Shown in pieces: positions 58,011 through 58,628 of a stretch of 64,000 nucleotides of DNA. The stretch covers positions 8,236 through 72,235 of the forward strand of contig JACPTK010000045.1 in assembly GCA_016192825.1 (NCBI GenBank), given 5' to 3'. Made by a program: the position numbers and the translations under genes. Source of the stretch: Betaproteobacteria bacterium (GTDB lineage: Bacteria; Pseudomonadota; Gammaproteobacteria; Burkholderiales; SG8-41). Position 1 is the first letter of the stretch. Each line of letters begins with the position of its first letter. The notes under the pieces are model-generated. The model saw only the letters and a list, made by a program, of their open reading frames with translations. It was not told the origin of the DNA and did not search any database.

Positions 58011-58628
58011 TCATTTCGTCGCTCCGGCAAGCGATGCCGGTACGGCACCGTAAATGCGCTGCGATTCTTCTTGGGTGACCAGCCGCCCGTCGGGCGAGAA
58101 CATGGGATAGAACTTGAGCGTCCCGAAAAAGGTATGGTAGCCGATGTTGAAGCCGATGAAGGCGCCGAGCTCGACGATCTCCTCCTCGGAATAGTGCCGG
58201 CGCAGCTCGTCGTGGAATTCGCGCCCGATCTTCGCGGGGTCGAGCGCCATCAGCTCGCTGTAGCGCAGCGCGATCTTCTCGGCCTCGGTGAAGCGGGGGC
58301 TCGCCGCGCAATGGGCGATGGCCTCGTCGATGTCGTCCTCCCGGAGGCCCTGCCGCTTCGCCGAAGCGGACCGGACGTTCCCTCAGTAGACGCAGGAGGC
58401 CATGCGGGAGAGCTGCACCCGGATGATCTCCTTCAGCTTGTGGCCGACGCGGCCGGTGTTGAAGATCGTGTCCCAGGCGACGAACATCGCCTCGCACAGG
58501 TCCACGTTGTGCCCCATCATCGCGTGGAAGCCCGGGTCTGGCGCGCGATGCTCGAGGCATTTGTCGATATAGGGCCTGAGCTTGGTCTTCCTCAGCGCCT
58601 CGATGTCGAGCATCGTGATGTTCGGCAT
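58011..58628 (-). CDS. AhpD/CMD-family protein with one in-frame TGA (58383-58385): candidate selenoprotein (C-V-Y-U) or very recent pseudogene
   Basis: The ORF-track pieces 58383..58628 and 58011..58250, plus the linker between them, are one frame. ...[56 protein letters not shown]... is colinear with the neighbouring paralogue. The hairpin CCGCUU-CGGCG-AAGCGG starts 13 nt after the TGA. Confidence 0.55.

Follow-up and report, generated by a model that had tools for sequence, protein, structure and literature searches.

A probable selenocysteine-encoding AhpD-like gene with a conserved hairpin after its in-frame UGA in a Burkholderiales genome

AhpD-like selenoproteins, in which selenocysteine (Sec, U) stands in a CxxU motif, have been in the literature since 2005. 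The Sargasso Sea survey by Zhang and Gladyshev lists 27 sequences of this family (COG2128; PMC1088965), and the 2008 Global Ocean Sampling survey counts 299 sequences of AhpD-like 1 and 70 of AhpD-like 2 (PF02627), the AhpD-like families being among the most abundant there and AhpD-like 2 being commoner in non-marine samples (PMC2398784). Recent reviews and BSepDB also include the family (PMC9312934, PMC13188914, PMC13326102), the CxxU motif is given for it in three accounts (PMC1088965, PMC2398784, PMC13188914), and a 2026 review names TIGR01926 as its model. Here we describe a gene of this kind in a 64,000-nucleotide stretch of a Betaproteobacteria bacterium (Burkholderiales, SG8-41; assembly GCA_016192825.1, contig JACPTK010000045.1, positions 8,236 to 72,235), referred to below as the window, whose numbering is used throughout. 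The gene occupies 58011..58628 on the minus strand. An earlier note on this DNA had proposed it as a candidate selenoprotein gene and had stated that AhpD-like selenoproteins figure in published surveys, as the two surveys above indeed record. We conclude that it is very probably a genuine Sec-encoding, AhpD-like gene with its own Sec insertion sequence (SECIS).

The gene shares with the published AhpD-like family (COG2128/YciW, the AhpD-like 1 of the Global Ocean Sampling survey) its superfamily, the C-x-x-U motif with Sec in place of the second cysteine, and a stem-loop after the UGA with an apical G. It also departs from that family. Cys homologues of the published family are widespread, whereas none that is credible was found among the 160 close relatives examined here; published representatives are mainly marine, whereas the present branch was recovered in Burkholderiales and Alphaproteobacteria metagenome-assembled genomes (MAGs) of soil, groundwater and sediment; and TIGR01926 is not reached (42.7 versus 81.8 bits). 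The gene is accompanied by a cysteine-less partner, which finds no mention in the accessible parts of the accounts of AhpD-like selenoproteins (PMC1088965, PMC2398784, PMC9312934, PMC13188914).

An in-frame TGA at the second-cysteine position

The minus-strand frame from 58628 to 58011 comprises 206 codons; it opens with an ATG (58628..58626), closes with a TGA (58013..58011) and contains a single internal stop, a TGA at 58385..58383 that forms codon 82 and that we read as U82. Translation bears out what the earlier note had claimed, namely that one frame is interrupted only by this TGA and that the TGA falls three residues after a cysteine: the TGC codon of Cys79, the partner of U82, lies at 58394..58392, and the TGA occupies the place of the second cysteine of a C-x-x-C redox motif. 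The Glu67 codon (58430..58428, minus strand) is separated from Cys79 by 11 residues, giving E-x11-C-x-x-U, and the context of the stop reads E67-x11-C79-V-Y-TGA-G-N-V-R. The listing of open reading frames (ORFs) splits the gene into 58383..58628 (81 aa) and 58011..58250; read as one, the predicted product has 205 aa and an AhpD/CMD fold. The G+C content at third codon positions (GC3) is 0.95 on either side of the TGA and that at second positions (GC2) 0.38 and 0.45, and this combination of high GC3 and low GC2 on both sides indicates that the coding signal runs on across the TGA. A scan of the window by GC3 and GC2 for other genes with an in-frame TGA gave no candidate, the remaining cases being ordinary gene ends.

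A search of 5.8 billion proteins returned 438 matches, most of them fragments of 112–129 aa that begin directly past the TGA, the mark of gene callers halting at a Sec codon; an exhaustive HMMER search also gave many fragments that end exactly at residue 81. We examined the DNA of 160 homologous loci (80 from species-representative genomes and 80 from metagenome contigs), which cover residues 1–205 at 68–91% amino-acid identity. The genome loci belong mostly to Burkholderiales/Betaproteobacteria MAGs, with Xanthobacteraceae/Pseudolabrys, Rhodospirillales, Nitrospinaceae, Tectomicrobia and Acidobacteriota among the further taxa. TGA stands at the column in all 161 sequences, the window counted, and Cys79 is invariant across 145 distinct gene sequences. 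Among distant full-length homologues (22–37% identity) most read C-x-Y-C at the TGA column, those of the partner-paralogue type read D-x-Y-F, and E67 is nearly invariant. The alignment that had been proposed as a check on whether homologues carry Cys or TGA here therefore gives TGA throughout the close relatives and Cys in most of the distant homologues; the PDB relatives Bmp8 and PA0269 have Cys there as well.

These data bear directly on the alternative raised in the earlier note, that a very recent TGC- or TGT-to-TGA nonsense mutation has made the gene a pseudogene. TGA is one substitution from either codon, and a database fragment (P0016) reads C-V-F-C, the sole Cys variant seen among close relatives. 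The contig behind P0016, however, is 518 nt long with 1.27x coverage; it shows a TAG in frame a few codons ahead of the C-V-F-C, and the hairpin described below is preserved on it. We rejected P0016 as a Cys orthologue, since a sequencing error is the probable cause. A recent nonsense mutation is excluded by the universality of TGA at the column, which spans several phyla, and purifying selection downstream of the TGA argues against it as well. In pairwise Nei–Gojobori comparisons of the window with 17 diverse homologues (synonymous divergence, dS, up to 2.7), the ratio of non-synonymous to synonymous substitution (dN/dS) was 0.08–0.33 upstream and 0.08–0.37 downstream of the TGA, and against the closest relatives it was 0.10–0.12 for both halves. 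We attach a negligible probability to this alternative.

A few nominally full-length database entries (62–88% identity) show W at the TGA column, which might favour decoding of the TGA as Trp or Gly under an alternative code, or general read-through. In one such entry, P0005, the codon behind the W is a stop when the DNA is read by table 11, and the W was thus introduced by a gene caller that used an alternative code. For P0005 and for the more distant homologue P0248 the W proved to be a TGA in the DNA, and these W residues come from automatic gene calls on short contigs that have TGA at the site. TGA is also the commonest stop codon in the window, ending 19 of its 32 well-supported long ORFs, and it terminates the selenoprotein gene, the partner paralogue and 132 of 154 homologues; it is thus an ordinary stop that has not been reassigned genome-wide. 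The column aligns to a catalytic Cys rather than to Trp, and a tRNA-SeC lies nearby in 11 genomes, selA and selB adjoining in most of them. Recoding of this sort is hardly credible.

Public collections hold the family in three mis-called forms (P0001–P0007, P0058, P0248; P0004, P0008, P0009, P0013, P0019): as N- or C-terminal fragments, as products in which alternative-code calling on short contigs has put W in the place of Sec, and as ORFs of 310–350 aa that start just past the TGA, cross the spacer and enter the paralogue. An open read-through into the paralogue was found in one of the 160 loci (L018), and most apparent fusions may therefore be frames that happen to stay open across G+C-rich spacers.

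When the TGA is replaced by Cys, the product scores 37.7 bits with the Pfam CMD family PF02627, whose gathering score is 23. The best curated NCBIfam model is NF053654, 'GroundWater_YciW: YciW-related (seleno)protein' (E = 5.5e-18), a (seleno)protein model of the same superfamily; since the score of 65 bits is far under its equivalog cut-off of 310, the gene represents a distinct subfamily. Homologues bear the JGI label 'alkylhydroperoxidase family enzyme', which is the label of COG2128. An AlphaFold (AF2) model of the homologue P0002 is all-helical (pLDDT 83.8), and Foldseek with this model retrieved Bmp8 (TM 0.67/0.72), PA0269 of Pseudomonas aeruginosa, the AhpD of Deinococcus radiodurans and further structures named 'AhpD core'. 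Among solved structures the best sequence match is again Bmp8 (E = 2.5e-10), whose C-M-Y-C aligns to C-V-Y-U; PA0269 reads C-A-Y-C, with its second Cys at the U82 column. We assign the gene to the COG2128/YciW-like branch of the AhpD/CMD superfamily.

The classical AhpD active site reads E-x11-C-x-x-C-x3-H, and the signature here is E67-x11-C79-V-Y-U82-x3-R86. M. tuberculosis AhpD, PA0269 (2o4d, 7xw1) and the D. radiodurans protein (6k40) share the all-helical CMD/AhpD fold and the E-x11-C-x-x-C helix, their second Cys aligning to U82; these AhpD-type proteins use Cys where the present gene has Sec, the Foldseek similarity to the M. tuberculosis protein is weak (E > 1), and no AhpC gene adjoins the selenoprotein gene. 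Bmp8, a debrominase (PDB 6ohi, 6ohj), shows about 23% identity and has Cys, not Sec; its likeness is one of fold and sequence only. Bmp8 belongs to a bromopyrrole biosynthetic cluster (PMC7918430), and this cluster is not present around the selenoprotein gene.

The hairpin downstream of the UGA

The upper stem-loop, CCGCUUC-GGC-GAAGCGG (58353..58369, minus strand), begins 13 nt past the UGA, and it is the hairpin that the earlier note had drawn at that distance as CCGCUU-CGGCG-AAGCGG. Its stem, rich in G+C, has 7 bp without a mismatch and carries a GGC triloop; no bulged U can be seen, and the loop G residues lie at +24/+25 (the U of UGA being +1), about 21–22 nt after the codon. A bacterial SECIS is described as a hairpin that follows closely on the UGA and bears G in a small apical loop (PMC1088965). 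Judged by sequence, the position of the present hairpin and its small G-containing loop fit that description. They also recall the E. coli fdhF-type SECIS and the bSECISearch consensus, likewise a hairpin in the coding sequence directly past the UGA with a small G loop. The loop G/U of E. coli fdhF lies at about +23/+24, a spacing similar to that found here; unlike the fdhF-type model, the present element has a GGC triloop, a perfect 7-bp stem and no visible bulged U.

Conservation of the hairpin in TGA-bearing homologues had also been proposed as a check, and it proved extensive. In 92 distinct sequences RNAalifold gives a core stem CGCUUC/GAAGCG of 6 pairs with a GGC loop, and not one of the 552 cells is broken. 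Two core pairs show compensatory changes (C-G to U-A and U-A to C-G), together with G-U intermediates, and some of the changes that preserve pairing alter the protein (K to R, R to Q and R to W). Codons 88–91 (GCT TCG GCG AAG) have the four lowest codon entropies in the gene, 0–0.06 bits, compared with an average of 0.92 bits for 102 other conserved degenerate codons and 1.1–1.35 bits for other conserved Ala codons. These data demonstrate constraint at the RNA level.

The hairpin recurs outside the close relatives. P0248, encoded at 1007–1519 of locus L169 in a low-G+C organism, is 26% identical to the product of our gene, and its frame, too, is interrupted by a stop at the U82 column (ECSY*GSVRT). 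It is followed at nearly the same offset, one nucleotide further from the UGA, by a hairpin CGCUUG-GGU-CAAGCG, in which G-C instead of C-G closes the loop and the GG loop is retained although the encoded peptide differs. This locus represents a second, predicted Sec-containing branch of the superfamily.

The hairpin also enters into a further alternative, that the two halves are separate genes of 81 aa and about 120 aa, together making a split CMD protein, with the hairpin serving mRNA stability or translational coupling. Annotation pipelines do call the halves separately, and many relatives have a GTG or ATG three codons past the TGA (MRSASAK...). The window, however, has GTC there, and its first in-frame ATG, GTG or TTG lies 45 codons downstream, a start that would delete conserved residues. 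A single CMD fold and its active-site helix span the TGA, the break falls exactly at the catalytic Cys column, and the hairpin sits at the position of a bacterial SECIS and has a G-containing loop. A split gene is thus very improbable, if slightly less so than a nonsense mutation or recoding.

Selenocysteine genes, partner paralogue and neighbourhood

Genes for Sec decoding lie beside homologues of the gene in other genomes. Of the 80 genome loci, 11 have a tRNA-SeC (anticodon TCA) that ARAGORN placed 0.9–7.9 kb away from the homologue; by our estimate, a distance of 10 kb or less between selC and a given gene would arise by chance in far fewer than 1% of genomes as large as these. A tblastn search with the SelA, SelB and SelD of E. 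coli, from loci L161 and L162, found selA and selB adjoining the gene in L026, L037, L043, L049, L058, L063, L064 and L067; L042 and L065 have a remnant of selB, and selD was found in L049 only. The selenoprotein gene and its partner occur as a pair near sel genes in L026, L037, L043, L049, L058, L063, L064, L065, L067 and L072, and in L064 and L065 the tRNA-SeC directly follows the pair. In L049 (5959–13986), selC-selB-selA on the minus strand are followed on the plus strand by a thioredoxin-like ORF (9557–9967, ...CVPC...) directly upstream of the selenoprotein gene, then by the selenoprotein gene and its paralogue, with selD about 1.7 kb further on.

The partner paralogue of the window (57335..57886, minus strand) encodes 183 aa with a CMD fold, and lacks the redox pair because D-P-Y-F replaces C-x-Y-U. 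It scores 20.4 bits against PF02627, just under the cut-off, and matches NF053654 with E = 1.8e-12. The earlier note had called the two genes colinear end to end, and they align without gaps at 39% identity over 176 residues. The paralogue stands directly downstream of the selenoprotein gene in 143 of the 147 loci with room for one, and the two genes share a stop/start overlap (ATGA or GTGA) in 100 of 156 loci. The overlap and the conserved pairing suggest that translation of the two genes is coupled and that their products form a heteromeric complex in which one subunit is catalytically dead. In the window the genes are instead separated by a 124-nt spacer (57887–58010), which looks like a local insertion or expansion because the genes overlap in most relatives. 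The spacer contains a tandem repeat identified by Tandem Repeats Finder, (CGGGAGAT) x 4.2 at 57918..57951, and a second repeat, (CTCACGCG) x 3.8, at 57968–57997. Just upstream of the start codon of the selenoprotein gene, 58645–58714 holds further repeats, (CAACCGC) x 5.6 and (AGTTGGCAGCCGTC) x 2.1.

Several observations weigh against a functional selenoprotein gene in the window. Within its 64 kb, ARAGORN and tblastn with E. coli SelA, SelB and SelD found no tRNA, selA, selB or selD. A103 and C107 of the window copy replace the G and Y found in over 90% of relatives, and Arg86 stands where classical AhpD has the His of C-x-x-C-x3-H; the Cys-containing relatives of the same branch also carry Arg-Ser at this position. 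None of the curated NCBIfam selenoprotein models is reached (besides NF053654 and TIGR01926, NF041047 gives 20.5 versus 110 bits). As for the hairpin, gathering-score and E-value scans of Rfam gave no relevant match, the fold energy of the single sequence is no better than that of dinucleotide shuffles of this G+C-rich stretch (z = +0.52), and the covariation counts for the whole structure are modest because the stem hardly varies. We discarded the single-sequence fold energy as evidence, and the significance of the hairpin is accordingly judged from comparative data only. The fold of minimum free energy for the window also allows an extended, bulged lower stem (58347..58376, minus strand), whose pairs are unpaired in 6–43 of the 92 sequences; we keep it as uncertain since it is weakly conserved.

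Some of these observations suit an alternative in which the ancestry is that of a true selenoprotein and the window copy is inactive, the host lineage having lost Sec decoding, so that translation yields no more than an 81-residue fragment and the gene is in decay. The absence of sel genes and tRNA-Sec from the window, the two changed residues at well-conserved positions, and the spacer with its tandem repeat in place of the usual stop/start overlap would all agree with decay. Against it, the gene keeps its frame, its start codon, its hairpin and every invariant residue, and dN/dS against the closest relatives is low in both halves. The lack of sel genes in one 64-kb window is, moreover, expected because they fill a few kb of a multi-Mb genome. 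We regard an inactive copy as improbable, although it is the least improbable of the alternatives set out here. The selenoprotein reading of the earlier note is upheld instead by the invariant TGA, its Cys counterpart in distant homologues, the constraint on the hairpin, selection on both halves and the linkage to sel genes elsewhere.

Beyond the paralogue, no neighbour is conserved across loci, and the genes beside the pair are unrelated to bmp genes. In the window, the stop of the paralogue and the ATG that opens the following gene overlap by one base (TGATG, 57333–57337, minus strand); this following gene is a 308-aa ORF (56409–57335) that resembles, by appearance alone, a TRAP-type (DctP-like) solute-binding protein. 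The selenoprotein gene, the paralogue and this ORF may form one operon in the window, the 308-aa ORF likewise not being kept as a neighbour elsewhere; matches of the TctC family near the loci are dispersed paralogues whose distances vary. Upstream of the selenoprotein gene, a 58-aa ORF (58733–58909, minus strand), called as a gene on matching Logan contigs and without a family match, may be a gene remnant. At some distance, the window may contain another gene of the CMD family, a 185-aa ORF (12820–13377, minus strand) with a CMD-like C-terminus (...GEGEIVELTVLASAYN...) in which a C-x-x-C pair is lacking.

Proposed mechanism and significance

We propose that, during translation, the hairpin 13 nt past the UGA would act as a bacterial SECIS and would recruit SelB-GTP-Sec-tRNA(Sec), whereupon UGA-82 would be decoded as Sec rather than terminate the chain. 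The predicted product would be a 205-aa all-helical AhpD-type selenol/thiol oxidoreductase in which U82 replaces the second Cys. By analogy with its relatives, the selenolate would attack an oxidised substrate, which might be a peroxiredoxin sulfenate or disulfide, a peroxide or another electrophile; C79 would resolve the adduct to a selenenylsulfide, and a thioredoxin-type thiol reductant would regenerate the enzyme. Since CMD proteins are oligomeric, the cysteine-less paralogue would probably be a structural partner in a hetero-oligomer.

A more speculative extension, which we consider unlikely though worth stating, is that the obligate-Sec AhpD-like protein and its cysteine-less paralogue constitute a dedicated two-subunit selenoenzyme with a function beyond generic peroxide defence. 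One possibility is that such an enzyme is tied to the selenium-utilisation machinery itself, the basis for this being that the pair lies beside selC-selB-selA in 11 of 80 genomes and once between selA and selD. Another is reductive dehalogenation by selenolate chemistry, in the manner of Bmp8 or of a deiodinase.

The kind of protein is already known, because AhpD-like CxxU selenoproteins have been published since 2005, and our knowledge of Sec decoding itself is unchanged by the result, its mechanism having been established already. The apparently Sec-only branch, the conserved partner paralogue and the recurrence beside selABC may be new details. In practical terms, the annotation should read as one 205-aa selenoprotein with U at residue 82; pipelines now call the gene as two fragments, a pseudogene or a Trp-bearing product, and hundreds of such pieces stand in public protein databases. 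The source organism, too, thereby becomes a probable user of Sec. For the family, a large and apparently Sec-only branch from soil and groundwater Proteobacteria would be added to the known AhpD-like selenoproteins, and the partner paralogue and the recurrent proximity to selABC would offer small new leads to the function of the AhpD-like selenoprotein family.

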